From: Glaucostegus cemiculus
Taxonomy: Eukaryota
Length of the DNA stretch: 64,000 nt
NCBI GenBank assembly: GCA_976551045.1
Contig: CDPCPM010000091.1
Span: forward strand, 11,408,001-11,472,000
Direction: 5' to 3'
Shown here: one piece after another, positions 7,196 through 62,612 of the stretch
How positions within the stretch are numbered: position 1 is the stretch's first letter
How the letters are laid out: every line of letters starts with the position of its first letter
Program-made: the position numbers and the translations under genes
Notes under the pieces: generated by a model
The model's database searches: none
What the model saw: only the letters and a program-made list of their open reading frames with translations
What the model was told of the DNA's origin: nothing

Positions 7196-7233
7196 CGGTC
7201 AATGTTTTGGGTCAGGACCCTTCTTCAGGACTG
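7196..7233 (-). ncRNA. Decayed minimal hammerhead motif
   Basis: Reverse complement reads CAGTC CTGAAGA A GGGT-CCTG-ACCC AAAA CATT GACCG. GAAA and CG appear lost by CpG decay. Confidence 0.6.
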
Positions 7234-8132
7234 AAGATAGGAAAATGGGAGGTGGGGTGGGCACAAGGTGGTGATAGGGAGATGCAGGTAAGAGACAGTG
7301 ATAGGCAGGTGTAGGGGTGGAGGGGAGAGCAGATCCACCAGGAGATGGGTCAAAGGTAAGGAGAGAGAGGAAAAAAAAGGGTAGAAAAAAGAGAGGTAGG
7401 CTAGGAAAGGAAAGAGTAGAAGGAGCATGGTTGGGGGAGGGTGTCTGTGGGGATTAATTAAAGAGGGAGAATTCAATGTTCATGGCTGTTAGGCTGCAAG
7501 GTTCCAAGACAGAAAATGAGGTGCTGTTCCTCCGGTTTGTGCTTGGAACTCTCCTGGCAGTGGAGGAGGCCGAGGACTGACATACAGTATCTGTGATAGC
7601 CAAGTGTGGCCTCTTCTACATTGGGTGAGACCAAACGCAGACTAGGTGACCGTTTTGTGGAACACCTGCGCTCTGTCCGTAACCACGACCTGCATCTCCC
7701 CGTTGCCAGTCGCTTCAACTCCACCACCCCACACTATCACTGGTATGTCAGTCCTGCCAGGAGAATTCCAAGCGCAAACTGGGGGAACAGCACCTCATTT
7801 TCTGTCTTGGAACTTTGCAGCCTAACGGCACGAACATTGAATTCTCCCACTTTAAGTAATCCCCACACTCGCCCACCCCAACCATGCTTTATCTTTTCTC
7901 CCCTTTCCTAGCCTCTCTCTCTTTTTTCTACCCCCATTTTCTTTTCTCTCTTTGCCTTTGACCCATCCCCCAGAGGATCTGCTCTCCCCTCCTCCCCCAC
8001 ACCTGTCTATCACTATCTCTTACCTGCATCTACCTATCACCACCCTGTGCCCACCCCACCTCCCCTCTTTTGTCCATCTATCACTGCTCTGCTTTTCCCT
8101 GCAATATATTGGGCTTCCCCTTTTCCTATCTT

Positions 8133-8170
8133 CAGTCCTGAAGAAAGGTCCTGACCTGAAACGTTGACCA
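8133..8170 (+). ncRNA. Minimal type-I hammerhead ribozyme motif, core intact
   Basis: caGTC CTGAAGA A AGGT-CCTG-ACCT GAAA CGTT GAC: both core boxes, stem II, palindromic stem III (AACGTT), GUU cleavage triplet and 3-bp stem I. Confidence 0.72.
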
Positions 8171-9679
8171 CCTGTTTTTCTCCACGGATGCTGCCTGGCC
8201 TGCTGAGTTCCTCCAGCATCATAATGTTTCTCATTTATATTCCAGCATCTGCAGTCCTTTGTTTCTCCACCACTTTACACTTGCTTCCACTTGGAAAAAC
8301 AGTCCATTACTGCTATTTTCTGTTACCTGAAAATTAGCCTATCCACTTCAGCCACTTTTATTCCATGCCCTTTAAATATATAACTTTATGAAAAATAGTG
8401 ACATTTTTGTACCTGAGGTGTTTGCATATAGGTATCAAGCATCACTTCACTGTGTGAATAATTTGTGCTTAAAGGAACAAGGAAACAACTATATGGATTT
8501 TGTTATGCATTACATATCTTTAAGCCTCAGGGATTAATATCTCTCAATAAAAAATAATCATAAATGCAGAACAGTCATTGAAAAGGAAGAATTTGGTTAG
8601 TTTCCCTTCAGATTTGTTATTACATGATGTAGAAGCAATATTCTTTCAATGTCTGATTGCTGGAATATCCTTGCCTTGCAACAATTTGGCAAGTTCACTT
8701 TTGTTCATCATGCAGTTTGATCTTAGAGTATTTTGCTTGCTGATAAGGAATTCTACAGTACATTATATTCAGAATGTAACTTGGCAAATACTTGTGAGCA
8801 AATCCTGATGGCATGGGAGGTTAATATATTAAACTTTCATCTCTAGTCCTTGCCGTGAACTGAGTTCATGTTAATGGAATGAAATATGTTCTATTGCTGT
8901 AGGGATTGAATATTCATGGCACTTTCTAATTTGCATCCAGTTGTTTAGTGGGTACAGGCCCAGAACAGGAAATCTCATTCTGACATCTGCAAAGTGGCTA
9001 TTTCACAAAATGCAAGATCCATACTGGCTGGAGTTGAAGGAATGCTATTTGTGTTATCTATGGTTTGCAAAGTGCTTTGCAATGTCATGATTTAGCCTAA
9101 GTGGAAAATTTTTCATTTTCCTTTACTCACTGTAGCAAGTAAAACTAAAGAAAGTAAATAAATAATACATTCCTAAATAAAGCAAACTGTATCATGCTGT
9201 AGGTTTGCATAGGGCACCCATGTTTGCAAAACCTTGGTAGCATGCCTACCACTCATACGGCACACAGTATTTATCTGTATAATTAGAATTGACCATTGTA
9301 AAATATTTTGAAAATTAGTCCTGAAAAATTAGCTTTCAGGGATGAACCCCACACTGATTTTCGCTTTGGAAGATATTCTTTTGATTCTTGGCCTGCATTT
9401 TAAGATAGCTTTGGATATTGGATGTTAGATGTTCTCAGGCACATATCACGAAATTGCCGTTGTATTTAGGGCTGCCATATCTTCATCAGGAGCCAAGGGT
9501 AGAATCCAGGGCTGAAGAGAGGTGACCAGAAAGTGGAAATCATTCAGGAGAGAGAATAGAGATAAGAGGGTGCAATTGAAAAAGGGAAACAAATATGTGG
9601 CAGCGACAGATTGGGAAGGATCGCTGCTAAATTTGGCTTAACCACAAATACTACCAGACCCTATTCTGTTCTGCCAAAG

Positions 9680-10000
9680 CTGCTCAATATTCCAAGATCA
9701 TCCTGGAATGCACAGATAACTCATTGCTTCTCTTCCATAGAGTGAATGATCTTTTTAAGCCACATTCTTCCATCTCCCCCAGTCATAAAATAATTACCTA
9801 TATTGAGCCTATCAGTTTAACAGTGTCTGTTACTTCCTTCATTTCCCTTAACCCACCAGGCCAGGAATGTGAGGTTACCCTCAGCTCTAGCTCCAAACTT
9901 ACATAAGTCTACAGTTTCTCTGCTCATCTCCCTCACACCCTCTTTAAGCTTGTTTTGTCCATGAGATACACATCCTGCTTTATCAGCCCAAGAGTGCGAA
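9680..10000 (+). mobile_element. Ancient L2-clade LINE fragment
   Basis: Decayed translation SPHTLFKLVLSMRYTSC resembles the L2 ORF2 linker before the RT domain. Confidence 0.4.
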
Positions 10001-10009
10001 CAGTCAGAT

Positions 10010-10385
10010 ACAGTTTTAGTTAGAATGGGCATGGTTTGTGACAGTGACCAAAAATAATGGTTTTAGTTGTCCCAATATTGTATTAAGGAATTCTCTGTTC
10101 ATTCTGTGCTGTGTGTGGGACAAGCACTCCAGAAATTTAGAGACAGAGGAGGACTCAAGAAAGGTACTGGTGAGACTGAACTGGGTCAACCAAATTATAT
10201 GTGGAAACTTACTGATGATGATGAGGGCTAGCATGTGAAAAAGAAGGAGAGGGATCAGTATTGTTGAGAGGTACAAAAGGTTACAGTGTTAGTAGGGGAA
10301 TAGAAGCCACTGCAGGCGATTCACTGGCTATGACTTGATAGATAAGAATAAAACCAAGCAAGTGTAGTTCCATCCATCCAGTTAG
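10010..10385 (-). mobile_element. Ancient L2-clade LINE RT fragment
   Basis: Minus strand reads GTTLAWFYSYLSSHSQ followed by a decayed VPQ..ILxPLLF segment. Confidence 0.6.
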
Positions 10386-10399
10386 CAATGGAGGGGACT

Positions 10400-18398: not shown

Positions 18399-19504
18399 AT
18401 GTAGAAAAAGATCCCGAGTTCTAGGTTGTTGAAGTAATGTTGAAGAAATTGAAACCTAATGAACAAGTTGATCCTGAAAGAATGGATGAAACACATGATA
18501 AACAAATATTGGAATAGTGACAAGCATGAAAGGTTGGTCTATCAAATATGACTCCTCATTAAAGAGGTATCTGAAGCAGCATGCAAATAATCATTAAATG
18601 CAGCAAATGCTGAAGGAGGAGATTAGTTATATGTCACACAGTCTAATAACTCTGCCATTACAGCAGATAAGACTAGCATCGATATTGACCAGCACTAGAA
18701 TATGTAATCAATGCCAGAATGTGACCACATTTGCCATTGCTTGCAGAAGTCAGTATGAGACAATACAGATGTACTGAAATGCTGCATCTGCATTTAAGTC
18801 ACTCTCTTATGCAATGATTGGATGCTAGTTAACTGTAAAATAGGTCAGCAACCTATTCCGTTTGTGTTGACAATTTCTCTTTGTGTCTTTCTATGTGGGG
18901 ATTGTTAAAGTAGGTTTGGGTCAGATGTGACGTTAAAATTTTAAAAACCTCAAAACACAGTCACATCTAGTTTTAAACGAGGCTAGCCAAGACTGGGTAA
19001 ACATCACTGCTCCTCGGAGGTAGATCGCTTATTTAATGTTTCATATTTCATCTCTCTCAGGTTTAACCAGTTCACCACTCCCCCATCTTACCCCAAGTAA
19101 ACTCAGCAGCTAAAGGTGGGGTGTGGTGGGAGAGGTAAAGACTACTGCCACACTTTTGGTACACTGCTTGTGAACCTGAATGAGTAGGAGTGCTTTGACT
19201 TGGCCCTCTACCTATCCTGTTTCACTGCCTGCACATTGAGGACCTCTCATCCATGATAACACCCCAACTTGCTACTAGCCCAATGTGATGACCCCCTAAT
19301 CCTTTACACCACTGACCCCAAACCCCTGCAATTTGTACATACTATTTACCTTCTTCAGCAGTCCCCACCCAAAAAGTAAGCTGAAGGACATATCAGTTTC
19401 ATTTCCAGATAGAAACCTGCCTCAGAAGACACGTGCATGTCATGTTGTCAGACTGAACTTTCCTCCCTCCCTCTTGGACATACTCAGTATCAACTGTGGT
19501 TGAT

Positions 19505-19630
19505 GCAAGGGATTGCAGTTACTGGAATCTGGAGCAACCAATCTGCTGGAGGATCCCAGCCGGTTGAGCAGCATCTGTGGAAGGAAAGGAACTGTCGACG
19601 CTTCAGGTCGAAACCCTGCATCAGGACCCC
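19505..19630 (-). mobile_element. Penelope-like terminus with variant hammerhead motif (19593-19628)
   Basis: Reverse complement GTC CTGATGC AGGGT-TTCG-ACCT GAAG CGTC GAC, followed by the terminal hairpin. Confidence 0.7.
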
Positions 19631-19684: not shown

Positions 19685-19939
19685 TGTAACAGCGCCAGCG
19701 ACCCAGGTTCAATTCCGGCCGCTGTCCGTAAGGAGTTTGTACGTTCTGCCTGCATGGGTTTCCTCCGGGTGCTCCAGTTTCCTCCCACATTCCAAAGACA
19801 TATGGGTTAGGAAGTTGTGGGCATGCTATGTTGGTGCTGAAAGCGTGGCGACACTTGCGGGCTGCCCCCAGAACACGCTACGCAAAAGATGCATTTCACT
19901 GTGTGTTTCAACGTACATGTGACAAATAAAGAAATCTTA
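19685..19939 (+). mobile_element. tRNA-derived V-SINE, family B (tail ...tacatgtgacaaataaaga), 5' clipped
   Basis: B box ggttcaattcc and V core. Tail shared with 51702-52001 and 63418-63695. Confidence 0.88.
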
Positions 19940-22400: not shown

Positions 22401-22409
22401 ACATGCTTA

Positions 22410-22572
22410 GTAGAGCAACACACACAAAGTGCTGGAGGGACTCAGCAGGTCAGGAGCATCCAATGAGGGAAACAAACAGTCAATGTTATGGGCCAAGAGC
22501 CCTCATCAGGACTGGAAAGAAAGAGGGCAGAAGCCAAAATAAAATGGTGGGGTGAGGAGCACGAGCTGGCGT
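22410..22572 (-). mobile_element. Penelope-like terminus with decayed hammerhead (22477-22514)
   Basis: Reverse complement CAGTC CTGATGA GGGC-TCTTG-GCCC ATAA CATT GACTG. Confidence 0.75.
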
Positions 22573-28744: not shown

Positions 28745-28838
28745 AAGTGGTTGAGGCAGGTTATTATTAATAGTATTATTTAAGAAGCACTTGGATAGGC
28801 ACATGGAGGGGGGGGCTTGGATGGCTATGGGCCAAATA

Positions 28839-29090: not shown

Positions 29091-29159
29091 CCCATGCCGG
29101 AACTTGGGATTAGTTGGTGAAGTACCAATGTCAGCATGGACTGGTTGGGCCAAAGGTCA

Positions 29160-31339: not shown

Positions 31340-31462
31340 CTTCAGTCCAGATGAAGGGTCTCGATCCAACTTCCGTTTCCCTGTATAGATGCCACCTGAT
31401 GTGCTGAGTTCCTCCAGCATTTTGTGTGTTGCTCCATATTCCAGCATTTGCAGTCTCTTTTA
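31340..31462 (+). mobile_element. Penelope-like terminus with decayed hammerhead (31343-31372)
   Basis: cagtcCAGATGAagggtctcgatcc then tagatgcc...gctgagttcctccagca...ccagcatttgcagtc. Confidence 0.72.
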
Positions 31463-39450: not shown

Positions 39451-40947
39451 ATGTCAAGTTGTTACTTCACTAGTGAAATCCAATTTTATACTTATGATCA
39501 GATATTGCATTAACAAACTGTTAACATGTCTTGCTAATAAATCACAAAGGATTCAGATTTGCTTTCACAGATTTATCCTAGATTTTCCTACTACCACAAG
39601 AACTAATTGTGACCAAGTGATAATGATTAATATTTAATGGTTGAATGTTATTTTAAACTTGAAAAATTCTTCAAGTGACCCAGTTAATCTGAGGGAAAAT
39701 TGTCATTTTGATAGAATTAATTAATATCCATCTCTCAGGGGAAAATGGGAGTCATGGGCAAAGATCTTTCTGATTAATGTATCTTGCATTGTCATAATGA
39801 TGCTTTCAGACTCTGTGGTGGCTAATATACAGCCGTCATAATCATTATGTTGTAAATGTGAAACTTTTGGGGATTTTCCTTTTTAAAAAATTTGAAATAA
39901 TCTCCATATTGACTATATTACTCCAAAAGTAAACACTCTCTGGATTCCAGGAACCCCATGTAACTGCAAATTCTCAGCAGACAAAGCAGTATTTTCCAAT
40001 AGAAAATAACCAGATGACAACTAGTGGCTGCACTATAAAGTTAACTGTTATTTCACTGCACAAATGAAGCCACATCTGCTGAGTATTTCCAAAATTTTCT
40101 AATTTTGTTTCTTGAATATGTTGGTTGACTGATATTTTATGTATTTGGTCCAGAACCAGGTACATATTCTACCATGTTTAATTGAAAGTATGTTGCTCAT
40201 TATGCAATCAACAATTATTTTGCCTAAATCTCTGAGAATGTAATTAACTATTCCAATCCACGAGCAAACTGAATATAAACCTTGTTACATTCATTAAAGC
40301 TAAGTTAAAAGCATAATTAACTGTAACTACAATTAAACAATATATTTATAGTGTTTTATATCTCCAGACATTACCAATCCCCAAGCAAAATGCTTGAGAT
40401 TTAATTGTAATTAAATTGTAATTGTAAAATTGAATTAATTCATAACATACTTATATAAACCACCCAGTATTAGATTAAAATCTTACTACATTTAATAACA
40501 AAATGCTTAATGAAGCTTTCCTAAGTACAATGTTCAGACAAAACAAGGATAAATTAAAACATAATCGGGATTTAGATAATCATCTTTGTCATCATGAAAA
40601 TGCAAATTGAAATTATGTAAAGTAAATAAAGAATCACATTTAATTATTAGATACACCACTGCTTATTATTACACTAAAACTAAATATAAAATACTTTTTG
40701 ATTTACTTTAGAGGAATTGGTGTGAAGCCCATGGAAGATTCATGGCTGAGCCTTAATTAAATTAAAACTTCTGATGCTAATTGCACTCCTTGAGGGCAGA
40801 TCGGTGATTGGGGGTGGGGTGGAGCATCCAGCAGGTCAGCTGCTACTCAAAGCTTGCAAAATCCAAAAAAGTGATACAGTAAAATTCAACTTTGGTATTG
40901 TAAAATAACAAGCATAGCCTTCCTCATCAAGTCTGGAGTCAGGCTAG

Positions 40948-41262: not shown

Positions 41263-42925
41263 GCCGCTCTCCTTTGTTTTGTTTGTGTGTCGGATAGAAC
41301 CCTTTGCCAAATCCATCAGGAAGGACAAGAGCTTAAGAGGGCTGGCGTTGCCGGGCAGGGGAGGCACCCAGGTCAAAACCTCCCTGTACATGGACAATGT
41401 CGCCGTCTTCGGCTCGGATCCACGGTCAGTTTGCAGATTGATCAGTATCTGTGACCAGTTGGAGTCGGCAGCGGAAGCCAGAGTCAACTGCGTTAAGAGC
41501 GAGGCCACGCTCTTTGGCAACTGGCCCAACCCATCCAACGTCCCGCTCAACCGTCAGGTCTGACGACCTGAAAGTGCTGGGGATCTGGTTCGGAGGGTCT
41601 GAGGTGTGTAACAAGAATTGACTTGAGTGGATTGAGAAGGTCAAGCAAGGAATGGGTCTGTGGAAACAGCGCTCTTTGTCAATAACTGGGAAGAACTTGG
41701 TCAGCAGGTGCGATATGATCTCAGGGCTGTTGTACTCGGCGCAGGTGTGGCCCGTTCCCCGCTCTTCTACCTCGGTAATCACCCAGTCGCCTTCCAGTTT
41801 ATCTGGGGGTCCAAGTGGAGGGAGTCTGACAGATCACGATGCACAAGTCCCCTGAGAATGGGGGCAAAATGGACCAATCATTGCCCTCATTCTGACAACC
41901 GCTGCATCAGACGGTGTGCGGAACCAAAGTACATGGGCACTAAGTGTCACTATGTGTGGAGGTTCTACCTGTCCCCAGTGTTGTGGAAAGTAGGTCTGGC
42001 CCTGTTGCCATGCAACATCCCAGTCAGCTGGACATTGCCGCACTACCTGTCCTTTATGGAAGAGTTCTTCCAAGCAAGCACCTTTGACCACATCCATCAG
42101 GCAATGGTCAGCACGGGACGTCCTGCAGACACTGTGGGACAGCGACCCTATGGATGCTGTGGGATGGTTCCCTGAGCAAACTGTCCAAATCATGTGGCAG
42201 GATGCCTCATCACAATACCTCATCAACAAGCACCAAGACCTCACCTGGCTGGCAGTGAGGTGGGCCCTCCCGGTCAGATCCTTCCTCTTCAGATGACACA
42301 TCATCCCTACCACACGCTATAGTGGGGAAGAGGTGGTCACCCACCTCTTTGCAGACCATGGATTTGCTAAGAAGGTGTGGAGATGGATGCAAGGGTCCAT
42401 GTCCTGGCTCATCCCCAGCAGCTGAGCAACAGAGGACTCTCTGATTTATGGGCTGTTCCCAAGGGAGCACACCAAAACAGACTAACTGCTGCTGGAAGGT
42501 CCTCAACTTGGTGAAAGACACCCTTTGGTCTGCCCAAACTTGTTGCTCTGCCAGCACGGTGAGATGTCCATAGAGGAACGCTGCTGACTGGCACATTCCA
42601 GGCTGCAGGAGTCTGTGCTGAGGGATGCACTGAAGCTCGGTGCAGCCAATGCAAAGGCTCTGCGGGGGAAGGACCAGAGTCTAGATCCCCTCCGCTAATG
42701 CACATGGAGGGACTGAGTCAGGTGGGGAAGCCCCTCAAACAGTGAAATGGTGTATCACCTCAGAGGGCCACAAAAGTGGCAATGGTATGATGGTTTTAAA
42801 AAATAAGTTAACACTACTGTATGTGTTGACCATGAATGTAAAAGTTTTACACTGTTACTTTTGCATATATTTTTATTATGAATGGTTTATTTTTGAAATA
42901 TAGAAAATATAAAAAAACAAACAAA
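41262..42925 (+). mobile_element. 5'-truncated Tx1-group (L1 clade) non-LTR retrotransposon
   Basis: FVCRIEPFAKSIR, SLYMDNV (RT YxDD decayed), ARVNCVKSE, LKVLGIWF, LWKQRSLSITGK, with frameshifts. 3' UTR and A-rich tail near 42900. Confidence 0.87.
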
Positions 42926-43959: not shown

Positions 43960-46335
43960 AGCAAACTGCTGGAGGAACTCAGCAGATCAGGCAGCATCTG
44001 TAGAGACAGAGGGACTGTTGACATTTCAGTTCAAGATGCTGCATTAGGACAGAGTCCAGAGGGGAGGTGGCCAATATAAAGTAATGGGGGGGAGGGGGGG
44101 AGGGGGGAGGCAGGAGCTGCCATCCGATAGGTGGAATCAGGTGAGGAGAGGAATGAAGGGCAGATGGAGCCAGGGAGGGGAGGGTGGCAGTAGCGATAGA
44201 GGCTGGAAGGTGATAACTGGAGATAACAAACGGCTGCAGATTCTCGAATCTGATGAGGAAGATGCTAAGTGGAATTGGATAAGGGAGGGATGATGGGTAG
44301 ATTGAACCAGTGAAGGAGGGGATAGGAGAATGAGTGGGTTAAGTGTTTGGGTGATGGGTAGTGGAACCAATGAGGGAGGGGGAGAAAACAGCAATAGGGG
44401 TTTGGGGGAGCAGGGTTGTTGGAAAGAAGGGGGTGGGAGAACCTGGGTAGATCAGAAGGAGAGGAAAGGAACACCAGAGGTGCAGGTTACCTGAAATTGG
44501 ATATTTCATTGTGCAAGCGTTGGGTTGTAGACCACTCAGGTGGAATATGAGGTACTGCTCTTCTAGTTTGTGTTTAGCCTCACCCTGGCAGTGGAGAAGG
44601 CTGAGAATAAACAGGTTGGTGTGGGATTACATGCAGCCAAGAGCTCAAGATAGCCATTGCAACAGAATACAAGTGCTCGGCTGAGTGATCGCCTCATCTA
44701 CACTTGGTCTCACCAGTGTAGAGGAGGGCACATCGTAGAAGCACTGAATCTAATAGACAAGGTTGGAGGAGGTGCACACTAATCTCTGCCTCACCTGGAA
44801 GGGCTGTGAAGATCCCTGGATGGAGGTGAGGGAAGGGGGTGCAAGGACAGGTGTTGCATCTCCTACCATTGCAGGGGTAGGTGCCAGGTACGGGGAGAGG
44901 TGGGTGGGAAGGATAAACAAACCAGTAAGTCACAGAGAGAGTGGTCCCTGCAGAAAGCAGGAAGGGGTGGGGAGGGGAAGATGTGACTGGCAATGGGATC
45001 ATGTAGCAGCTGGTGGAACAGGTGAAGAATGACATGCTGGATGCAGAGGCCATTAGGGTGAAGGGTACAGACCAAGGGAACTCTGTCTCTGGGGTGAGAG
45101 CAGAAGTGTGAGAAATGGAGGAAATGTGGGTGAGGACTCCATCAAATACAGGAGAGGGGAAGCTATGTTTCCTGAAAAAGGAGGACGTTTCAGATGTCCT
45201 GCAACAGAAAGCTTCATCTTGAGAACAGATGTGATGGAGACAGAAACTGAGAGAAAGGGATGGTATTCCTACAGGAGGTAGGGTGGGAAGAGGTGCAACT
45301 TAGGTAGCTGTGAGAGTCAGCAGGTTTATAGTAAATGTCACTGATGTCACAATGTTGATTGAAGAGCAAGCTCACAGTGAACCCAAATACAGCACACTGG
45401 TACAAGACTGGAGTCAGGATACTTCCTCTGGACCAAACACAGGCAGCAACTGGAAGGAAATCTTGCCTCAGAGAGCCAAGTAGTAATCCCAACACAAACT
45501 GAATCTTCAAGCAGGACTAGAGAATGCAGAACTGCTCTGAAGTAGACCACTCTAAGCAGCAAGGAACCAAAGTATACCCAACAGTTGACCAATGCTCTGG
45601 CAGCTAGTGCTAGAGAAACCCAGGTACTTATGCTAGGCCCCTGATGGGGCTCAGGTGGGTGTCATTGTGCAATCAGTCCAGCATGGAATCCATGTGCTGT
45701 ACAATGAGGCATCTAAGGAGCCAAATCAAGGGCTAGTACTCAGAATCATGACAGGTGGATAGTTTGTCTCCTGATAGGGGAGAGAGGTGTCAGAAATGTC
45801 CATGTCAATTTGAGGGCAGATTGAAAGTAAGTAGCAAAGTTGATAAAATTGACAAGAACCACATGAGTGCAGAAGGCAGCATCAGTCAGTGATGTAGCAG
45901 AGAAAGAGTTGGGGACCGGTGCAAGAACAATTCGATGTAGCCAATGAAAGGTGGGCATAATGAGGGCCTATGTAAGTCCCCATGGTCACCCTTTTCATTT
46001 GTAAGAAGTGAGAGGAATCAAAGTGAGAGGGATGATGTTCAGGGTAAGAACAAGACAGATGAGAGTGTTAGTAGAGGGGAACCAGTTAGATCTATGTTCT
46101 AGAAAGAAGTGGAGAGCCCTAAGACCTTCCTGATGGGGGGATGGAGATGTACATAGACAGGATATCCATGGTGAAGATGAGGCAATGGGGGCTAGGGAAT
46201 TGGAAGTTGTCAAAATGGTCGAAGGAATGTTGGGTGTCCCAGATGAGGGTGAAAAGGGACTGGGCAAGGGGGAAACAAGATAGAGCTGAGATATGAGGAG
46301 AAAAGATCAGTGAGGCAGGAACCTTGCAGGGTAAG
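43960..46335 (-). mobile_element. Long decayed Penelope-like element (RT + Zn linker + GIY-YIG + terminus with hammerhead remnant 44014-44051)
   Basis: Minus-strand motifs in order: LIFTMDILSMYISIP, STNTLICL, DIYYKPADSHSYL, IPFSQFL, GTYPCNGRRCNTCP, CALLYTGETKCR. Confidence 0.9.
45345..45753. mobile_element. Probable solo LTR (409 bp) inserted in the Penelope RT
   Basis: Starts TGTCACAAT and ends ATCATGACA (TG...CA with short imperfect inverted termini). It splits the PLE motif GDKLST|DIYYKP. Confidence 0.6.
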
Positions 46336-46392
46336 GAGAGTAAGAAGGAGACCACTTAAGAAAGGTACTAGGAACCTTTAGTTTTGAATAAG

Positions 46393-46642
46393 GGTGGCAC
46401 GGTAGCGTAGCGGTTAGCGCTACTCTATTACAGTGCCAGCGATCGGGGTTCGATTCCCGGCGCTGTCTGTAAGGAGTCTGTACATTCTCCCGTGTCTGGG
46501 TGGGTTTCCTCCAGGTGCTCCAGTTTCCTCCCACATTTCAAAAAGATGTACGGGTAGGTTAATTTAGGGGTTTAAAATGGGCGGCGTGGACTCGTTGGGC
46601 CGAAAGGGCCTGTTACCGCGCTGTAAGTAAAACTTAAACTAT
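46393..46642 (+). mobile_element. Young V-SINE, family A
   Basis: Intact A and B boxes, V core and family A tail. Confidence 0.92.
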
Positions 46643-47205: not shown

Positions 47206-48079
47206 TCTAAATTGCTGGGACCGGCCAACTTTTAAGGTCTTACCATTTCTGTCAATGCTGAGTCTCAATGGTAAATGTGGAGAGCAGGAATTCAGAGGGG
47301 AAGGACATGGATTGCCCAAAGTCAAGATGGTGCAGCATAGAAGAAGGACTATCCACTGCTCTAACATCCCCGTATCCCACCAGTTACAGCACATCCTTGG
47401 CTCACAGTGGAATTTATCATAAAACAAAGCTACAGGAACTAAAACAATACTGCCCCAATTATTAAGGATCACGTATTAAATCAGGATAGTTATAACCCCA
47501 ATTCAACAATATGGTGTGTGTGTCAAATGGTTACAGTGAAAATTTAGGGGAGAAATGTTGTTCAGATTATGTATGCCCTTGTGTCTTCCCTCCTTCAACT
47601 TTATTTCATATCTGATTCAATATTGCATGAACTGGGAAAGAAAGTCAAGGTTGCTGCTGATGTAATGCAATAAATTCTTGAAAAGTCTGTGTCTGTGTTT
47701 GCAATAATGAGAGATACTATTTCAATAAAATAATGAACTCACACCTGTAACAGCAGCTAATGATGCTGTCATAATTATCAACATAATATTTCAATATTTA
47801 ACTTATTAGGATGTTCTGCAGCATGTAATTTCTTAGGTCAATAAAAATTGTTATTTTCGTGCCACGGTTAGGCTGTTGCCATTAGTGTAATGCTTATACT
47901 TGCTTAGAATGCAGGGAGACTCTTAAAATAGCAATTTATTCCAGGCTGCTGTTAGTCAACATTGGAATAGACAAAGGCAAGGAAACACTGTCAAATTCTC
48001 TTGGTACCAAATGTGGTAAAATCAAGAATACCTACTGAGTACCTTTATACTTCCTGTCCAGATTTGATTTTACTAAGGA

Positions 48080-48355
48080 AACACAAGAGACTGCAGATGC
48101 TGCAGTCTGGAGCAAAAAGACAACTGCTGGCGGAACCCTGCTGGTCAGGCAGCATCTGCAGAGGTCAAACTTTCAGGTTGAGGCACTGCATCAGGACACT
48201 GCCCTTAAACAGTGACACCATGCAGAACATGGGTAGAAGCACAAAGAAACCAGCCTTTAAAAGAAAGGTCTGATACAGGGTTTCAACATCAATCATCCCT
48301 CTGCCTCCACAGATGCTGTTTGACCCGCTGAGTTCCTCAGGCAGTTTGTTTTTTT
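48080..48355. mobile_element. Fold-back mini element of two inverted PLE termini, each with a hammerhead remnant
   Basis: Left arm 48080-48198 (-) and right arm 48267-48355 (+) around a ~70-bp spacer. Confidence 0.7.
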
Positions 48356-49579
48356 GAATTTAGCCATCTTGCACTGGTACTCTGTTAGATATTCTGCGCA
48401 GCTATGCAGTAGAAATAATTTACATTGATCCAGAGTATGTTTTATCCTGTTGAACTCAAGTCTAAGCTATTATACATTCTGGCTGCGTGTGCTTGTTATA
48501 AGAATAAAATCTGGGTGGTCTCAGTGGGAGGCATGCAGTCAACAAGTAGTATGTTGGGCTTTTCATTCCAAAGATTAAAGTTCGGGATAGGCCAGAGGTG
48601 CATATACAGGCAAATGTGAAATAAATATGAAACTGATACATCCATACACCTATGAGAAGGGAAACAGCCAACAATGGGAGGTTGGAGTGTAGTCTATCCA
48701 TAGTTGAAATGGATGGAAGTTCTAACTGGAGTAGAACATTAGTAGAAAATAAATTAACTTGGCAGTTACCTTTGAAATTCTCTTAATCCTTAGTAACAGT
48801 GCAATCTCTTTATCTCATTGTTCAAATCTCAAGTGCAGCTATTAGATGGCATTTGGGACAAAATGTCAGATTGATTTTTCTTTAAGCTAGAATTATTGGG
48901 CTAAGTCTTGACCATGCGCACATATATAAAGTGGGTGAAAGTGCATCAGCAGCCTATTTTCATACTCACAGCTTTTTATTTTGATTAAAGGTGAGATGTG
49001 AAACAAGTTCCTATTTCATTATCACACATTCTACCCCAATGCAAAATAGACAAAGCATGTTGCTGAATGGTGAAAGATTATGTGTTTCATTTGGAAAATT
49101 ATTAACATTAGAAAATAGCTGAGTTTTTTTCTTGTGTAGGATGTTGGGGGAATTGCTGTGCAAATACAGCATTGCATTTTATCCTTGCTATTGGCAAGAG
49201 AGTCCATAGAAATGAGTGAAATGCTGAGATTCTCAGTTCTGTGACTCCAAGGTCAACTTCCAGAATAGCCTTTCAGATAGCTTTAGGAAATCTTTAAATT
49301 TACAGGAGACCTATTTATCCATTTTCTAGGAGGTGGAATGAAAATAATTCTATTTTTCTGTTGTAAATGTGTTGTTTTGATTACATATTGTTAACTGGTC
49401 TTGTGGGGAAAACTGGTTAAGTATGCAAGGTAGAAATAGAAAGATGGCTAGATAGGAATAAGTGAAGTAGAACTGAAGGAAACCCAAACGGAGTATAAAC
49501 CCTGGCACACAAGGGAAAAAAACAAGCTGAGTTAATATCACAGATGGAGGACTGATAGAGACAGAGAAATCAAGTTGGC

Positions 49580-49882
49580 GTGTTTGCTCCTTTTTCTTTT
49601 TTCTGTCTCTCTGGAAGTGGAGAACATGCCCAGCTTGACCTGCTTTAACAGCTCCCACTCACTCATTGACCAGGCAACTTTGTTAACGGTTTATCTCCAT
49701 CGTCACCCTCGTTTTACCTGTCAGAGACACTCCCCTCCCCCACATTCCCCGCAGTTTAACGAGTTTCTATTAGCTCTTTCCTCGTTCTGACAAAGGATCT
49801 TCAACCTAAAACATTAACTTTGCTTCTCTTCCCACAGATGCAGCCTGACCTGCTGAGTATTTCCAGCATTTTCTGTTTTTAT
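49580..49882 (+). mobile_element. Penelope-like 3' region with hammerhead remnant (49784-49819)
   Basis: gttCTGACAAaggatcttcaacctAAAAcattaac then cagatgcagcctgacctgctgagtatttccagca. Confidence 0.65.
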
Positions 49883-50125: not shown

Positions 50126-50373
50126 TTTATTAAATTTAAATTTTATTTATTTACAGCGTGGTAACAGGCCCAACGAGTCCGTGCCGCCCATTTCAAACCC
50201 CCTAATTAACCTACCCGTACGTCTTTTAGTATGTGGGAGGAAACCGGAGCACCCAGAGGAAACCCACACAGACACAGGGAGGACGTACAAACTCCTTACA
50301 GTCAGCGACGGGAATCGAACCCTGATCGCTGGCGCTGTAACAGCGTCGCGCTAACCGCTACGCTATCGTGCCG
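50126..50373 (-). mobile_element. Young V-SINE, family A
   Basis: Near-identical to 28839-29090 with a short deletion in the tail. Confidence 0.92.
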
Positions 50374-51134
50374 ACTTTGTCAATACCATCCAGAGGTGAA
50401 TTAATAGTGGTCACTGCCACGAGGGTTGACTGTTCTTACTGTTACAGTTTGAGAACATTCAGCATTTACTGTCATACCACCACTGCATAGAGCCGAAGAA
50501 ACTTCAGTGTAGTATCTAGAAACAATTTGGTTTAAAAATATGGGAGTATGCTGCTGAGAATGAAGTAGGTCTTCTGCTCTTACATCTGGCCTGGTCTGGG
50601 CTCCTTCCCAAATCTCAGGACTGGAGTTATTTTAATAACTCATCTGAGTTTAAATTCAATATTCATGGTAGTCCTTGGGCATCTGCTGCCCAAAAGTATC
50701 TTGTCATTCCATTGAAGTGAGCAAGTTGGTTGGGGTAAAACTGTCTCACGTAGAAAGTGCCTGTAAAGGCAGCACATATTGTGATGTTCTACTTCTTTAA
50801 TGGCAATAACTCTCCAAGATCATTTTGTGAAGATGAGACCCACTTGTACCCATTTTATCACAAGCAACTCATAGGCAGAACTGGCAGATTTTAGGGTATA
50901 CTCAACATCCCAACGAACGTGACATTTGAATGAAAAGAAGCAGTCAGAAGCGACTGATTTTGTTGAGATGAGGAAACTGGTGCCAACAGTTGTTGGCACA
51001 GTGTTGCATCAAGTAGAGCAGCTGCCTCATAGCTCTAGGGACCTGGATTCGACCCCAACCTTAGATGCTGTCAGTGTGGAGTTTGCACATTCTCCCTGTA
51101 TCCGCACGGATTTCCCTCCCACATCCCCAAGCCA

Positions 51135-52642
51135 TACAGAGACACAGGAGATTCTGCAGATGCTGGAATCTGGAGCAACACACACAAAGTACTGGAAGAA
51201 CTCAGCAGGTCAGGCAGCATCTATGGAGGGAAATGAACAGTCGACGTTTTGGGTTGAGACCCTTCACCAGGACTGGAAAGGAAGAGGGCAGAAGCCAGAA
51301 TAAGAAGGTCGAGGGAGGGGGAGGAGCACAGGCTGACAGGTGATAGGTGAGTCCAGGTGAGAGGGGGAAGGTAGGAGGGTGGAGAGAGGGGAGATGTAAG
51401 AAGCTGAGGTGATATGTAGAAGAGACTGAAGAAGAAGGAATCTGGAGGGAGAGGGTAGTGGACCATGGAATAAAAGGGAGGAGGTGGGGAATAGATAGGC
51501 ATATGAGGGTGGGGAGGGGAAAGAAAAGGGGTGAGGAGGCCACAGGAATGAGGGAAGGCAAAGGGGGGGTAGAAGGAGGGAGGGGAAAAAGGGGGGGAGG
51601 GAAGAGAAGAGGGGAGAGGTTACCAGAAATCGACATTGAGGCCATTGAGTTGGAGACTACCAAGGTGGAATATGGGGTGCTGTTCCTCCAACCTGCATCC
51701 TGGGGACTGCATGGTAGCATAGTGGTTAGCACAATGCTTTACAGCGCCAGCGACCCAGGTTCAAATCCGGCCACTTCCTGTAAGGAGTTTGTACGGTCTC
51801 CCTGTGTCTGTGTGGGTTTCCTCCGGGTGCTCCAGTTTCCTCCCACTTTCCAAAGACGTACAGGTTAGGAAGTTGTGGGCATGCTAATGTTGGTGCCGGA
51901 AGCGTGGCGACACTTGCGGGCTGCCCCCCCAAAATCAGTATGCAAAAGATGTAGTTCACTGTGTTTCGATGTAGATGTGACTAATAAAGATCTTATCTTA
52001 TCCGACAACGGGGCAGTAGAGGAGGCCATGAATAGACATATCAGTATGGGAGTGGGATGTGGAATTGAAGTGGTTGGCCACCAGGAGATCCTTGCTTTTG
52101 TGGTCGACAGAGCGAAGGTGCTCGACAAAGTGGTCACCCAATCGGGTCTCACCGATGTAGAGGAGGCCGCACCAGGAGCACAGGATGCATAGTCTCCAAC
52201 CCAACACCCTCAACATCGATTTCTATAACTTCTGGTAACCTCTCCCCTCTTCTTCACGCCCACTCCCTTTTTCCTTTCTCCTTCCTTCCTTCCCCCCCCC
52301 TTTGTCTTCCCTCTTCCCTGTGGCCCCCTCACCCTTTCACTTTCCCCTTTCCCCATCCTCATGACTTTCCTATCTATTCCCCACCATCCTTTATTCCATG
52401 GTCCACTGCCCTCTCCTACCGGATTCCTCCTTCTTCAGCCCTTTGCCTCTTCTACATATCACCACTCAGCTTTTTACATCTCCCCCCTCCACCACCCACC
52501 TACCTTCCCCCTCTCACCTGGACTTGCCTGTCACCTCCCGGCCTGTGCTCCACACTCTCCCCTGACCTTCTTGTTCCGGCTTCTGCCCTCTTCCTTTCAG
52601 TCCTGATGAAGGGTCTCGACCCAAATCGCTGACTGTTCATTA
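51135..52642 (-). mobile_element. Penelope-like element with inverted arm, GIY-YIG remnant and hammerhead motifs at 51238-51275 (-) and 52598-52635 (+)
   Basis: ORF 51998..52216 reads CSWCGLLYIGETRLGDHFVEHLRSV. 52190-52640 is the reverse complement of ~51232-51660. Confidence 0.88.
51702..52001 (+). mobile_element. V-SINE family B, full length
   Basis: A box tagcatagtgg, B box ggttcaaatcc, tail gtgactaataaagatcttatctta. Confidence 0.9.
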
Positions 52643-53054
52643 CCCAAAGACATTCGGGTTGGTAGGCTTATTGGCCACTGTAAATTGTCCCCAGGATGTA
52701 GATGAGCAGTAGAATCAAGGGGAAGAGTTAATGATAAAAAGGGAAGAATAAAATGGGACTAGTGCAAGATTAATGTAAAGTGGGTGCTTAACAGTTGGTG
52801 TGGACTCAGTGGACTGAAGGGCCTGTTTCCGTGCTGTATGACTCAAAGACTCTCCATGAGAAACAAAAATAATTTCAGTCCCATATTATCCTCCATTCTT
52901 TCCCTGCAAACAAAGAATTTCTAACTTTTGCATGCAATACAATGTTTGTTGTACATCCATTTGTACCTCAACATTTGCTCATGATATGTCATTTACAGGA
53001 ATACAGTTTGGAGATAAATTTGAAGGGACATAAACCAAAATAATTCATCTTTTT

Positions 53055-53172
53055 CAGGGTCTTAACCCAAAACATCAACTGTCCATTTCCCTCCATAGAT
53101 GCTACCTGACCCATTGAGTTCCTCCAGCAGATTGTTTGTTGTTCCAGATTCCAGCATCTGCAGTCTCCTGTA
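53055..53172 (+). mobile_element. Penelope-like terminus truncated inside the hammerhead
   Basis: agggtcttaacccAAAAcatcaactg followed by the terminal hairpin ending ccagcatctgcagtc. Confidence 0.72.
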
Positions 53173-54009: not shown

Positions 54010-54145
54010 GTGGAGACACAAGAGACAGCAGATGCTGGAATCTGGAGCAACAAACAAAACGCCAGAGGAACTCAGCAAGTCAGGCAACATCTGTGGAGAG
54101 AAATGGACAGTCGACACTTAGGGTCAAGACCCTTCATCTAGACTA
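54010..54145 (-). mobile_element. Penelope-like terminus with decayed hammerhead (54108-54144)
   Basis: Reverse complement agtc TAGATGA A GGGT-CTTG-ACCC TAAG TGTC GACTG. Confidence 0.72.
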
Positions 54146-56112: not shown

Positions 56113-56119
56113 CTTAAAA

Positions 56120-57234: not shown

Positions 57235-57239
57235 TTACA

Positions 57240-57830: not shown

Positions 57831-58789
57831 GATAAGGGCCACATTGGATTCATTTAGTCCACCACTCCCACATCCTCTGGATATTTCTACATCGTATCTC
57901 TGTATGGCCATGGCTCCTCTGAACCATATTTCCAGCGTCTTCAAGTAAGTTGACCTGACAACAGAGGAAGCAAAGGATCAGTTAACAAAGAAGTCACCCT
58001 TGCTTCTGCTCTGACTTTCCCTGGCCCCCCCAGGACTGTTCAAATGTGTCTCAGATGCTCATCAGTCTGTGGAGCAACAATGGATCCCAGCAGAAGATGT
58101 CAATCTTCTTGGTGTACGCGGAAGTTTTATTATGTGTGCCTCACTACCTGGGATTATTGCCTCACTTTTACCCATATCCTTCCTGATGGGCTCAGCAAAA
58201 GGCTCAACATACAGCCAAACAGAAGGGGGAGAGCGTGAACATCAAAAGGAAAATTGCAGATGCTATAAGTCTGACACAAAAACAGGAAATGCTGGAAACA
58301 CTCAGCAGGCCAGGCAACCTCTGTGGAAAGTGAAGTGTTGGTTTCCGAGAGGTGGAGTGCATTGGTGCTCTTCTTCCCAACACTTTGTTACCTGTCTCAG
58401 CTCACCTTGCCTGACGTGTAACAGCAGTTTCACACATTTTCCAATGCCCTAATGTTTCTTTTTCTAATTCTCTTGGGTCCTCAGCAGAGGAGAAGTCACC
58501 ATTGTTTAATGGGGACTCACAAGATCTTTAACTTTCTGTGATTCCTTGAACATTGGCATTTCTAGATCTGCAAGCATTCCTCTTTCTCCCATATGTCATG
58601 TAGCCCTTCCCAATCTACAGGCCAAGTGCCATCTCCTCTGCGGTGTCTGCACTGGGCTTGGTGGCAGCTGTCAGCTGTTCACTTCATTCCTCCTCCATGT
58701 TATCCTGTTGCTCTGATATTCACCTCCTGCTTCTTCAAGTGAGCCTCTAATCTGTCTGAATGACCAAGCTGACCAGTGTTGACATTTCT

Positions 58790-59038
58790 TTTTAAATTTT
58801 TAAAATAAATTTTATTTACAGCGCGGTAACAGGCCCTTTCGGCCCTCTGAGTCCACACCGCCCATTTTAAACCCCCAAATTAACCTACCCGTACGTCTTT
58901 CAGAATGTGGGAGGAAACCGGAGCACCCGGAGGAAACCCACGCAGGCACGGGGAAGAACGAACAAACTCCTTACAGTCAGCGACGGGAATCGAACCCCGA
59001 TCGCTGGCGCTGTAACAGCGTCGCGCTAACCGCTACGC
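58790..59038 (-). mobile_element. Young V-SINE, family A
   Basis: Near-identical to the other family A copies, with the first ~10 nt missing. Confidence 0.92.
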
Positions 59039-59109
59039 TTCTAATGTTGGCTGATTGCCTCACTGGCTAGATTACAAAGCAGATGATGTTAAGGTCTTCC
59101 TGTTTTGTT

Positions 59110-60405
59110 ACTGTTTGCTAGTTCAAGACTGTCTATGTGTGTATTGCACAGCCGTGCACAACAACAACATCATTTGAAAGTAAGGCCCTAGAAAATGCGT
59201 ACCACTGCCCATATCTGGAGAGTCATCTCCCTGAAAAGGGAAGCAACAATAATGAAATTCACCATCTCCTCGGTGCACCAGAGCAACCTTTGAAGATCAA
59301 GACTGCAAGTTTGGCACAAAAGTGAATTCTGCCCTTTAAAGACTTGGACTACTTGCAGCAGGCATGTCAAGGCACTGGAGAGATACACGCAATGCTACCT
59401 CTGCAGAGTCCTCCAATCCACTGGAAGGATAAGCAAATCAACATCATGTCTCCTAGGCCAATGTTCTCAACACTGAGGTATTACACTCAGCTGGCTCCTT
59501 TGGGCAGGCAACATCACTCACGTGCCCGACACCAGATTCTGAAACTATCTCTCTCCTTCTGATCCACCCAGGTCCTCCCACACTCACCCTTTTTCCCAAC
59601 CCCCCTCCCCCACACAACCCTCATCACTCAGTTTCTCTTTCCTCCCCCACATGGTTCTATCTGCCTGTTCCCACACAATCAATGCAATGGGTTGCTACCC
59701 CTTCTTGGTACTATTCCCATCTTCCTACCATCCCTCCCTTATCCGGTTCCACTGATCCTTTCTGATTGGAATCTGCAGCCCTCTGTTGTCTTCACATCAC
59801 CTCCCAGCCTGTGGTTATCTCCACCCTTCCCCCACCCACCCACCCACCTGACTCCATCTGCCCGTCAATGCCTCCTCACCTGAATCCACATATCACTTGG
59901 CAGCTCCTGCCTCCCACCCCCTCTTTATAGTGACTATCACCCCTCTCTAATCTCAGGCCTAATACAGGATCTCAACCCAACTCTTTGACTATCCCTCTGC
60001 CTCCACCGATGCTGCTTGACTTGCTGGGTTCCCCCAGCAGCTTGTATTTTGCCTCTTAAACAGATCATCTATTCTGGGCTCTGTCGTGGGAAGAGGCTAC
60101 CACATGGACAGAGATTCAAGGATGTTTTCAAAGCCAACTAAAAAGTGCAACATCCCACTGGCTCCTCAAGATGCCGGGTCCACAGCTGCTCAGCATAAAG
60201 AAGGAATATTCAGAAGGCAATGAGTGTTTCGATCCATGCATTGGGACCACACAGAAGCCCAGTACGACATCACACAGACTATGCACCCACCTGCCCTTAG
60301 GGCAAATCCTGTCCCATCTCTGGAAGGGTCTGTACCTCCCATGTTGGGCTGAAAACCCATAGAATGGAATGGAAACAAGTCATCCTCGATCCTGAAGGGT
60401 AGTCT
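59110..60405 (+). mobile_element. Decayed RTE-clade LINE 3' part, split by a PLE fragment
   Basis: LENAYHCPYLESHL..NEIHHLL, TWTTCSRHVKALERY and IHWKD, resuming after 60055 with RFKDVFKA..KKCNI. Confidence 0.75.
59555..60055 (+). mobile_element. Penelope-like 3' fragment (C-rich UTR, hammerhead remnant 59954-59990)
   Basis: Reverse-complement similarity to 43960-44450. Ends gatgctgcttgacttgctgggttcccccagcag. Confidence 0.72.
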
Positions 60406-60419
60406 GGGTTGGAAAGAAA

Positions 60420-60620
60420 ATCCACAGAAATTTATAGACCCTGGAAATCTGAAAGTAAAACAGAAAATGCTGGAAGCAGCAGGCCAGGCAACATCTATGG
60501 AAAGGAAACCAGAGTCCATAATTCAGGTCAAAGACCTTTTGTCAGAACTGGGAAAGAAAGAAAATGAATTAGTTTTAAGTTGCAGAGAGGTGGATAGAAT
60601 AAAGGAATATGGTGAGGGGT
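60420..60620 (-). mobile_element. Penelope-like terminus with hammerhead remnant (60513-60550)
   Basis: Reverse complement cagtt CTGACAA A AGGT-CTTTG-ACCT GAAT. Confidence 0.65.
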
Positions 60621-61069
60621 TGCTGTATGTTCTCCTGCATCTTTAAATTGTCACTTCAAGAAAATATCTTCATTCTGCTCAGTTATTATCATACAAAAGG
60701 AATCGTAGTGGCGCGGGAGTTTCAGGCTTATTGACATTCTAAAGGATTGGTAAATGGGTTTCATTCAAACAAAGACCTCGATGTTAGCATTTCTAAGACA
60801 TGACTGAAAAGGCAGGGATTTTGTAGGCTCGCTCATTACCTGCTGTCCATATTTGGAAACCTCATTAACGGCCTGATCCCCAAGGTTCAACAGTCAGCTA
60901 ATTTGAACAAACAAATGTTACTGTACGGTGTAATTTAAAAGAAAACTACTTCAAGGATTACGTTACTGGAACAATTTGGAAGATTATAAAGTTGCTCTGC
61001 GAGATGCAATTTGGGATTTAGATGATTCTTATGCACTGTGAAGTGTCCCTACAATCTCTATGTACATAC

Positions 61070-61590
61070 GTTAGTAAGAAGTAAATGCAGAAGTTGACCA
61101 TATGGCCCCCATGAGCCTTCTTTACTGTTCAATAAACTCATGACTAATCTTGTACTACAAGTCCACTTTCCCACCTGATTACTATTCAGTGATTTCTTCA
61201 GTGTCCAAAAGTCTATCAATCTCGGCTTTAAATCTATTGAAAGGCTGAGCATCTACAGACCTCTAGGGAGAAAATTGTCAAGATTTATGCCCCTCTGAAT
61301 AAAGAAGTTTCTCCTCAGCTGAGCTGTAAACAGCTGATATTGTGCCATCTCAGTTTAGATTCTCCACTTGAGGGAAAGCCCTTTCAGCATCCACCCTCCC
61401 CACCCCTGTTGGGGTTTAGCATCAATGAGATCAACTCTCATTCTTCTGAACTCCGGCTGATTCAATCCATTATTAATTTACCTCTCCCCAAAAGACAGCC
61501 TTTCCAGAATGACACCAGTAAGTTTACACTGCTGTGTCTCAAAGGCAAGTGTATTTTTACATATTGTTCATCACACTACTTAGCCAGGGC
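61070..61590 (-). mobile_element. Old CR1 3' fragment
   Basis: CR1 3' UTR (catatggcccc...) and decayed C-terminus. Confidence 0.65.
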
Positions 61591-61719
61591 CATTTAATCC
61601 TTGGGTACATTATTACGTTGTGTGCAGCTATATATTATTCTTGAACAATCCAGGCTGTAATTTTTATAAAATCAGATTGTGTTGAAATTGGAGTTGTTAA
61701 AACGACCGTGCATTATTCC

Positions 61720-62612
61720 AAAGCAGAAACAGAAAATGCTGGAAGCGCTCAGCAGGTCAAGCAGCATCAGTCAAGACCAGATCTGGATTGGATGACCTTT
61801 CATCAGAACTGGAACGTGAGAGAACAGGCATGTCTAAGTTACAGAAAAGAGGAGAGATGGCGAGAACAGTGGGAATGTCTGTAACAGGGTGCTGGCCAAT
61901 GTTGTCAAGGCAACAATTACTTTAAAACAAAATGGCAGTGGGAGACAGATGAGAAAAAAAAGAAACACGTTAAAATAGAAGGGTACAGTAACATTTGTGG
62001 ATAGGGAGAGAAAAAGGGAGTGGATACCTGAAATTGTGAATTCAGTATTAAGTCCTGAAGGCTGCAAAGTACTCAGACAGAACAGAAAGAACTGTTTCAA
62101 GAGCTTACTTTGGCCATGTGGAATAACATTCATTCATTCATTCATTCATTTATTTATTTATTTACCTGCAGCGTGGTAACAGGCCCTTTTGGCCCAACAA
62201 GTCCGCGCCGCCCATTTTAAACACCCCAAATTAACCTACCTGTACGTCTTTAGAATGTGAGAGGAAACTGGAGCACCCGGAGGAAACCCACGCAGACACG
62301 GGAGAACGTACAAACTCCTTACAGTCAGCGACGGGAATTGAACCCCGATCGCTGGTGCTGTAACAGTGTCGCACTAACCGCTTCGCTATCGTGCCATTTT
62401 GAGGCTAGCAGTACATAGGAGGCTGAAGGCAGAGACGTCAGAGTGGGAGTGGGATGGAGGATTAAAGTGACAGACAACTGGAAGCTCAAGTTCAGGTTGT
62501 GGATTGAACGAAGGCTTTCTGTAAGTCGGTCACCCAATCTGCATTTGGCTTCACCGATGTAAAAGAGATCACATCGAGAGCACCAAATGCAAGATACTAA
62601 ATTGGAACAAGT
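61720..62612 (-). mobile_element. Penelope-like 3' part (GIY-YIG remnant, half hammerhead 61786-61811) with SINE insertion
   Basis: Minus strand reads YIGEAKCRLGDRLTE..., then LSTLQPSGLNTEF. Reverse complement cagttCTGATGAaaggtc. Confidence 0.8.
62128..62395 (-). mobile_element. Young V-SINE family A with (TAAA)n(TGAA)n tail
   Basis: Family A body. Tail expanded into cattcattcatt/tatttatt. Confidence 0.92.

Follow-up and report, generated by a model that had tools for sequence, protein, structure and literature searches.

The 16 hammerhead-like motifs of a 64,000-nt stretch of the Glaucostegus cemiculus genome (assembly GCA_976551045.1, contig CDPCPM010000091.1, positions 11,408,001 to 11,472,000; referred to here as the window) were identified, with a probability of about 0.9, as decayed minimal type I hammerhead ribozymes situated in the terminal repeat at the 3' end of Penelope-like elements (PLEs) of Neptune type. 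The copies are likely products of reverse transcription initiated ~70-105 nt downstream of a ribozyme that had not been cut, and in most cases halted early. Copies are named by the 5' end of their motif, and loci by letter as in Table 1.

Copies of the hammerhead repeat

An nhmmer profile iterated from nine seeds (cut-off E < 1e-3) placed all 16 positions listed in a preliminary description of this sequence on copies of one repeat family (E <= 1.2e-16 each in the last round). In total, 20 copies were found in the window, the 16 named ones and four others that are more decayed or shorter, and no match to the family passed the cut-off in any of 20 dinucleotide-shuffled windows (best 0.0025), confirming the recurrence originally reported. 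The copies had been described as intact to heavily decayed, but the 38-nt consensus motif quoted is intact in none of them, and all 11 invariant core letters are kept in only one of the 16 named copies (8133, + strand). Two carry one core change and the other 13 carry 2-6 changes or deletions, the CUGANGA core being intact in six of the 16. Nearly all window copies are therefore dead relics, a point on which the preliminary description was overstated, and the dispersed copies are likely neutral fossils.

CpG is scarce in the window (observed/expected 0.26), and identity to the majority letter was 57% (49/86) at the six CpG columns of the motif, compared with 82% (125/153) at non-CpG core columns. 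Together with CpG-centred transitions in reads (see below), this confirms the CpG decay proposed earlier for many of the inactivating changes. An Rfam scan at E <= 5 returned no hammerhead and four weak snoRNA matches instead, and a strict regular expression requiring G at position 10.1 had no match in the window, missing the 8133 copy because of its A-U pair at 10.1-11.1. A tRNA scan returned nothing, and no intact motif with either core (the standard one or the variant described below) was matched when metagenome contigs were searched by pattern.

Association with Neptune-type elements

The motif lies in the sense orientation to the open reading frame (ORF) of a PLE, 274, 345 and 436 nt past the stop codon of the GIY-YIG endonuclease at loci A, B and C, respectively. 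Using 16 of 120 homologous PLE proteins as tblastn queries, coding remnants were found upstream of five motifs (7583-7488 (-), 7599-7865 (+), 46328-44501 (-), 52201-51626 (-) and 62627-62035 (-)), and a short ORF end precedes a sixth (52598). At locus C, the matches run from reverse transcriptase (RT) into GIY-YIG, colinear but frameshifted, from 46328 to 44501, and the CX2-5CxxC zinc finger of the linker reads C-NGRR-C-NT-C. The homologues carry RT, this linker and GIY-YIG, with the linker finger present in 10 of 16 checked, the other six being truncated or altered at that point. This is the Neptune/Nematis arrangement (PMC8557442), and vertebrate PLEs are reported to be Neptune or Poseidon (bioRxiv 10.64898/2026.07.22.740005). 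Judged by domain architecture, the host elements are thus endonuclease-bearing (EN+) PLEs, probably of Neptune type.

The GIY-YIG remnant of locus A (7599..7859) shares 79% identity over 34 amino acids (aa) with whale-shark PLE protein P0005, and the ORF remnant of locus B shares 75% aa identity with stingray PLE protein P0002 (both tblastn). The best-named ORF relatives are from Mobula, Hypanus, Rhincodon and Chiloscyllium, which, together with a CR1-type RT close to proteins of the last and second of these genera (see below), points to a shark or ray as the likely host. Penelope elements have been recorded from the whale shark (PMC8455134). Some PLE ORFs (P0001, P0002 and P0119) have been merged into NCBI gene models that bear the names of host genes, namely chitinase domain protein 1, divergent protein kinase 1C and XIAP, which are annotation chimeras.

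The family majority and copy number in reads

Read counts and majorities were obtained from related species (the runs share 0.15-0.30 of words) and not from the genome of the window. Among the differences listed for the 51275 copy, A6 was restored in 18661 of 20512 DNA reads and G12 in 17809 of 31549, giving a majority for subfamily B of CUGAUGA-A with an intact CUGAUGA/GAAA core. On the 19629 copy, which belongs to a subfamily with C at core position 9 (C9), GAAA was restored in 8684 of 9721 reads. GAAA-C-G-U-C is the read majority in both subfamilies, with palindromic positions 15.2-16.2 and no helix III. Helices I and II have 5 and 4 bp in B and 3 and 4 bp in C9, within the published 3-7 bp each and with the G10.1-C11.1 closure, and stems I and II had pair probabilities of 0.85-1.0 in the folded 38-mer. 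The read majority thus has the sequence of an intact minimal type I hammerhead, in agreement with both the consensus and the descriptor published by Cervera and de la Pena (PMC4209133). The preliminary description had proposed such hammerheads in PLE terminal repeats, with a palindromic ACGU replacing stem III, and both the sense position after GIY-YIG and the GAAA-C-G-U-C majority agree with this. The test it set, whether CUGANGA/GAAA is absent from the consensus, came out in its favour, as the majority in these relatives keeps CUGAUGA/GAAA.

Transitions affected 21-33% of reads per CpG letter (29% and 28% at 15.2-16.2 on the 51275 copy), and 44-52% at C11.1-G12 where the copy used as reference had itself decayed at that pair. 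Over the motif's 3' half, depth was ~35,900 in 1922.5 million letters, equivalent to one copy per ~54 kb in the relative, which is a lower bound at 80% likeness to one decayed copy (51275). As batoid genomes span 2.2-4.0 Gb (bioRxiv 10.64898/2026.10.27.761883), at least 40,000-75,000 copies are expected in that relative. The claim of several subfamilies at very high copy number therefore stands, but the density of one per 4 kb finds no support beyond the window; it stems from a more sensitive profile and should not be extrapolated genome-wide.

RNA reads from another relative contained the family on both strands. No position at which many molecules start or stop, the cleavage site included, was seen in three RNA runs, standard libraries being a weak test of ribozyme ends. 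An opposite-strand joint at 51252/51275 seen in RNA (212 and 110 RNA reads, 1 DNA read) was set aside, as the RNA and DNA come from different species; it probably reflects a transcribed locus carrying an inverted pair in the species from which the RNA runs came. Opposite-strand joints clustered at the 5' edge of the hammerhead were also set aside, since homology to the reference stretch ends or changes there.

Covariation of the stems

In a 21-row alignment, stems I and II were paired in 78.4% of 134 cells, compared with 19-41% when partners were slid, and the covariation score of 0.134 was matched in 2 of 500 shuffles; related sequences, however, can exceed this control even in the absence of structure. 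Of the covarying pairs put forward originally, AGGT/ACCT at 8133 is opposed by GGGT/ACCC in the sister arm (7233) of the same insertion and, as C11.1 is also a CpG position, most likely arose after insertion. AGGT recurs in 60550 and 61811, where it may be characteristic of their subfamily. GGGC/GCCC occurs in a single decayed copy. However, GTT is present in all three copies of one subfamily and AAC stands opposite it in reads (loose-end consensus, ~3,400 reads), hence the GTT/AAC pair is probably real and looks like a subfamily-level change. The covariation put forward originally is thus borne out in part, two of its three examples being weak.

Structure and origin of the insertions

The two arms of locus A and those of locus B are each other's closest relatives (88.2% identity over 450 columns, with 65-75% to other loci, and 86.7% over 427 columns, with at most 76%, respectively). 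The arms within an insertion differ by 12-13%, mostly through transitions (36/53 and 39/57). Since each of three head-to-head pairs is, or is likely to be, one event, the 16 motifs, though all real sites, represent ~13 insertions and not 16 independent copies. A 35-40-nt tail is present on a single arm in each of the three informative pairs (A, E and F), and 5' ends are variable, some lying within the ribozyme and others as far as 2.3 kb upstream in RT. Target site duplications (TSDs) of 9-16 bp are discernible in five of 16 units. Those of locus A (15/16), 31343 (12/13) and 53055 (11/12) were each matched by ~0.2% of 400 random pairs, and those of 54145 (9/9) and pair E (9/10, a 10-bp direct repeat flanking it on the outside) by ~4%. 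Flush with the 19503-19629 insertion lies a 7-bp direct repeat that is not significant on its own. Fifteen of 16 named copies retain the motif's 5' half and the sixteenth begins at core position 9, indicating that the copied RNA was uncut at the hammerhead site.

The sense position, 5' truncation, inverted arms, one-sided tail, TSDs, intact majority and CpG decay are direct observations; the steps of a mechanism that would yield them follow PMC11167929 and PMC4209133. The RT-GIY-YIG protein of the element would nick the target and begin target-primed reverse transcription, priming internally at either of two positions that lie 70-105 nt beyond the site of cleavage (with or without the tail) on RNA uncleaved at the copied hammerhead. 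Synthesis would terminate early, and an inverted second copy would sometimes be added. While master elements were active, their hammerhead likely cleaved tandem transcripts at a slow rate after GUC or GUU, either in the form of a dimer joined through ACGU or assisted by the element's protein; in vitro, minimal hammerhead monomers are inactive and dimers weak (PMC4209133; review PMC6765202). Folding of the dimer did not favour the ACGU duplex (-1.7 kcal/mol, compared with -7.5 for the overlapping GUCGAC palindrome), though a thermodynamic model cannot judge the catalytic fold.

Several points weigh against this reading. No TSD beyond chance was found in 11 of the 16 units, and no full-length element with two terminal repeats (a direct 5' pseudo-long terminal repeat (pLTR) before a full ORF) is present in the window. 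Pfam found nothing in nine single-frame readings of the ORF remnants, the intact majority comes from other species, and internal priming was shown for a Poseidon element of Anolis (PMC11167929), not for Neptune.

The short copies might instead form a non-autonomous family, resembling short interspersed elements (SINEs) or retrozymes, that moves by itself as ribozyme-processed or circular RNA. The insertions at 31343, 53055 and 54145 are complete at 120-150 bp, have their own TSD and start no more than 15 nt from the 5' edge of the hammerhead, and read depth drops ~five-fold upstream of the hammerhead. Retrozymes have also been proposed as derivatives of PLE terminal repeats, with one chondrichthyan record (bioRxiv 10.64898/2026.07.22.740005). 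However, the window has no head-to-tail tandem arrays, the 5' ends vary as described above, every subfamily with short copies has long ones carrying ORF or untranslated region (UTR), and the copies cross the cleavage site rather than starting there, with no piled-up RNA ends in the three runs. Such a family is therefore improbable. It is very unlikely that the dispersed hammerheads function in host transcripts through co-opted cleavage or regulation, as covariation would suggest, even though 8133 retains every core letter and RNA reads cover both strands: core changes are present in 15 of 16 copies, the arms of single insertions have diverged mostly by transitions, head-to-head arms would pair together instead of forming a parallel dimer, and neither the inactivity of monomers (PMC4209133) nor the RNA ends favour cleavage.

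A subfamily with C at core position 9

In six copies of the window (19629, 44052, 48199, 48265, 53055 and 59954), A9 is replaced by C, followed by A and then G10.1, a subfamily that the preliminary description missed. Reads on the 19629 copy showed no difference of 15% or more at 19617-19619 in four of four runs (DNA depth near 8,600), and the other large differences in this motif were mostly at CpGs. These reads were recruited by likeness to the query and may clip near the edge (depth ~7,100 in the next bin). As the reads extend on the upstream side into UTR shared with loci C and D, the variant is tied to an RT-endonuclease element, and on this evidence a subfamily linked to the element of locus C has been amplified with C at core position 9. 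Its density in the related species is one per ~220 kb, corresponding to at least 10,000-18,000 copies.

The core CUGAUG-C-A differs from CUGANGA-H and does not fit the published '^cuganga' descriptor (PMC4209133), a search with which would miss it. It was not found in the searchable literature, though Lunse, Weinberg and Breaker 2017 on PLE hammerhead variants may hold it, nor among the core variants in the available part of Perreault et al. 2011 (PMC3088659). It may be either a tolerated insertion or a dead ribozyme. There is about an even chance that the change killed the ribozyme in a master element that kept moving, cleavage being unneeded for insertion: A9 pairs with G12 as a sheared pair (PMC11300833) and is fixed in the published descriptor (PMC4209133), stem I has just 3 bp in the read majority, and hammerhead mutants left insertion of the Anolis element unimpaired in vitro (PMC11167929). 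Conversely, the remaining core letters and both stems are intact in the subfamily majority, G10.1 still has an A before it, and room for one more base might exist between G8 and A9, where the backbone makes a sharp turn (PMC11300833). A working hammerhead with the extra base between G8 and A9 (CUGAUG-C-A-G) rather than after A9, in a shark/ray Neptune subfamily of at least 10,000 copies, is a tentative and somewhat doubtful proposal. If it were true, the A adjoining G10.1 could serve as A9, and such a core would be invisible to CUGANGA searches, so that PLE hammerheads would have been undercounted.

Features of the window

The loci and motifs are listed in Table 1.

Table 1. Penelope-like insertions and hammerhead motifs in the window
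Feature	Coordinates	Strand	Remarks
Locus A, single insertion	7119..8283	.	
Locus A, + arm	~7600-8268	+	GIY-YIG remnant, 3' UTR, hammerhead, tail; locus matched by shark/ray PLE proteins (tblastn)
Locus A, inverted, shorter arm	~7600 to 7135		without tail
Locus A, target duplication	7119-7134 / 8268-8283		16 bp, 15/16 matches
Hammerhead relic, A subfamily	7196..7233	-	CUGAAGA; G12>A
Hammerhead, all 11 invariant core letters	8133..8170	+	A10.1-U11.1, 3-bp stem I, GUU site
GIY-YIG endonuclease, C-terminal half	7599..7859	+	frameshifted; stop 274 nt upstream of hammerhead
Hammerhead relic, C9 subfamily	19592..19629	-	CUGAUG-C-A; in short tailed insertion 19503-19629
Hammerhead relic, B subfamily	22477..22514	-	within 22410-22566, without tail
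Hammerhead relic, B subfamily	31343..31371	+	3' half partly deleted; insertion 31328-31464, 13-bp TSD (12/13)
Locus C, longest element	43960..46328	-	decayed RT (interrupted by ~435 bp of unrelated DNA, 45345-45780), Zn-finger linker, GIY-YIG, 3' UTR, hammerhead
Hammerhead relic, C9 subfamily	44015..44052	-	locus C; also G5>A
Locus E, two short head-to-head arms	48063..48362	.	both C9 subfamily; tail on - arm only
Hammerhead relic, C9 subfamily	48165..48199	-	locus E
Hammerhead relic, C9 subfamily	48265..48295	+	locus E; stem II 3' strand deleted
Hammerhead relic, GTT/AAC subfamily	49782..49820	+	
Locus B, two arms	51138..52645	.	
Locus B, - arm	52201 to 51138	-	GIY-YIG remnant, UTR, hammerhead, tail; younger SINE-like insert 51701-51995 splits GIY-YIG
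Locus B, inverted arm	52190-52645		truncated past the hammerhead
Hammerhead relic, B subfamily	51238..51275	-	A6>G, G12>A; both restored by reads
Hammerhead relic, B subfamily	52598..52635	+	
Hammerhead, 3' part only	53055..53081	+	insertion starts at C before AGGGT; 12-bp TSD (11/12)
Hammerhead relic, B subfamily	54108..54145	-	insertion 54013-54144, exact 9-bp TSD
Locus D, 3' UTR of locus C type	59551..60050	+	79% identical to locus C over 472 columns
Hammerhead, C9, decayed	59954-59991	+	locus D
Hammerhead relic, GTT/AAC subfamily	60512..60550	-	
GIY-YIG remnant and UTR	61697..62627	-	GIY-YIG split by SINE-like insert
Hammerhead relic, 3' half deleted	61785-61811	-	in 61697..62627
Extra head-to-head pair	5984..6173	.	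5984-6096 (-) / 6073-6173 (+); junction inside hammerhead; tail on - arm only
Extra decayed copy	40028..40130	+	
Extra copy	58250..58346	-	starts near hammerhead 3' half

Downstream of the hammerhead, the 35 nt from a near-invariant ATG (51138-51215 (-) and equivalents) are 88% conserved across subfamilies, compared with 82% for the non-CpG core. Two helices are possible in this stretch, one pairing with the tail (88% paired), with covariation that is not significant (matched by 36 of 500 shuffles), and it is a candidate protein-binding or priming signal. An unusually stable fold of the 105 nt past the cleavage site was considered and rejected (z of +0.02 to -1.91 in eight sequences). Pyrimidine tracts ending in CAG or TAG, resembling splice acceptors, lie at the 5' end of helix I (51273-51290 (-)) and just before the conserved ATG (51221-51237 (-)), recalling Drosophila Penelope, in which an intron terminates at helix I (PMC4209133).

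A second dispersed repeat of ~250 bp, SINE-like and with 77-92% pairwise identity, was found at 19685-19939, 28417-28746, 28838-29094, 46392-46638 and 50127-50377, with further copies at 51701-51995, 58789-59039, 62153-62396 and 63422-63695; 28417-29094 is an inverted pair. As two copies are inserted into Penelope remnants, this repeat is younger than they are. RT remnants of CR1-type long interspersed elements (LINEs) are located at 32768-34006 (+), where a 413-codon open frame is 76-85% identical to Chiloscyllium and Hypanus proteins, and at 37044-37772 (+), and decayed RT-like frames of another LINE type at 41021-42680 (weak RVT_1, E 0.032).

Comparison with known systems

The motif closely matches the minimal hammerheads of Cervera and de la Pena 2014 (PMC4209133), sharing the U-rich leader, a helix I of 3-5 bp, CUGANGA with a single additional base, G10.1-C11.1, and GAAA-C-G-U-H without loop 3, and it is very like the Acropora Neptune row. 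Thousands of single dispersed copies and head-to-head pairs 100-700 bp apart are likewise common to both. No chondrichthyan is included among the 56 motifs from 40 species in the accessible part of that survey, the supplementary figures of which may bear on any prior record, and no paper on shark PLE ribozymes was among those listed in a literature search.

Like the Neptune EN+ PLEs of Craig et al. 2021 (PMC8557442), the elements combine RT, a CX2-5CxxC linker and a GIY-YIG domain at the C terminus with 5' truncation, an inverted 5' copy, a 30-40-bp tail at one end and a pLTR hammerhead. However, the microsatellite targeting of those elements was not seen here, and five of 16 units have 9-16-bp TSDs. 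In the Anolis carolinensis Poseidon element PAc (Frangieh et al. 2024; PMC11167929), insertions also end at two positions, ~70-105 nt beyond the site of cleavage, the template is uncut, no RNA ends lie at the cleavage site, and cleavage is unneeded for insertion. PAc belongs to another clade and its ORF begins inside the hammerhead, whereas the frame from the ATG within the motif stops after 21 codons here. Non-LTR (long terminal repeat) retrozymes (bioRxiv 10.64898/2026.07.22.740005) share the type I hammerhead, a relation to PLEs and presence in a chondrichthyan, but form head-to-tail tandem arrays in which each unit has a hammerhead, in contrast to the single or inverted stumps found here.

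The window copies are thus ordinary relics of a published kind (PMC4209133) and, being decayed, are of little importance to host biology, but they extend the PLE minimal-hammerhead class to very high copy number in cartilaginous fish and illustrate cleanly how inverted arms, tails on one side and TSDs look. What is new is the high-copy C9 subfamily, which departs from the published descriptor. If its ribozyme is dead, a PLE lineage amplified without a working one, implying that hammerheads are dispensable and bearing on what they do for PLEs; if it cuts, the CUGAUG-C-A core would be a new tolerated form.

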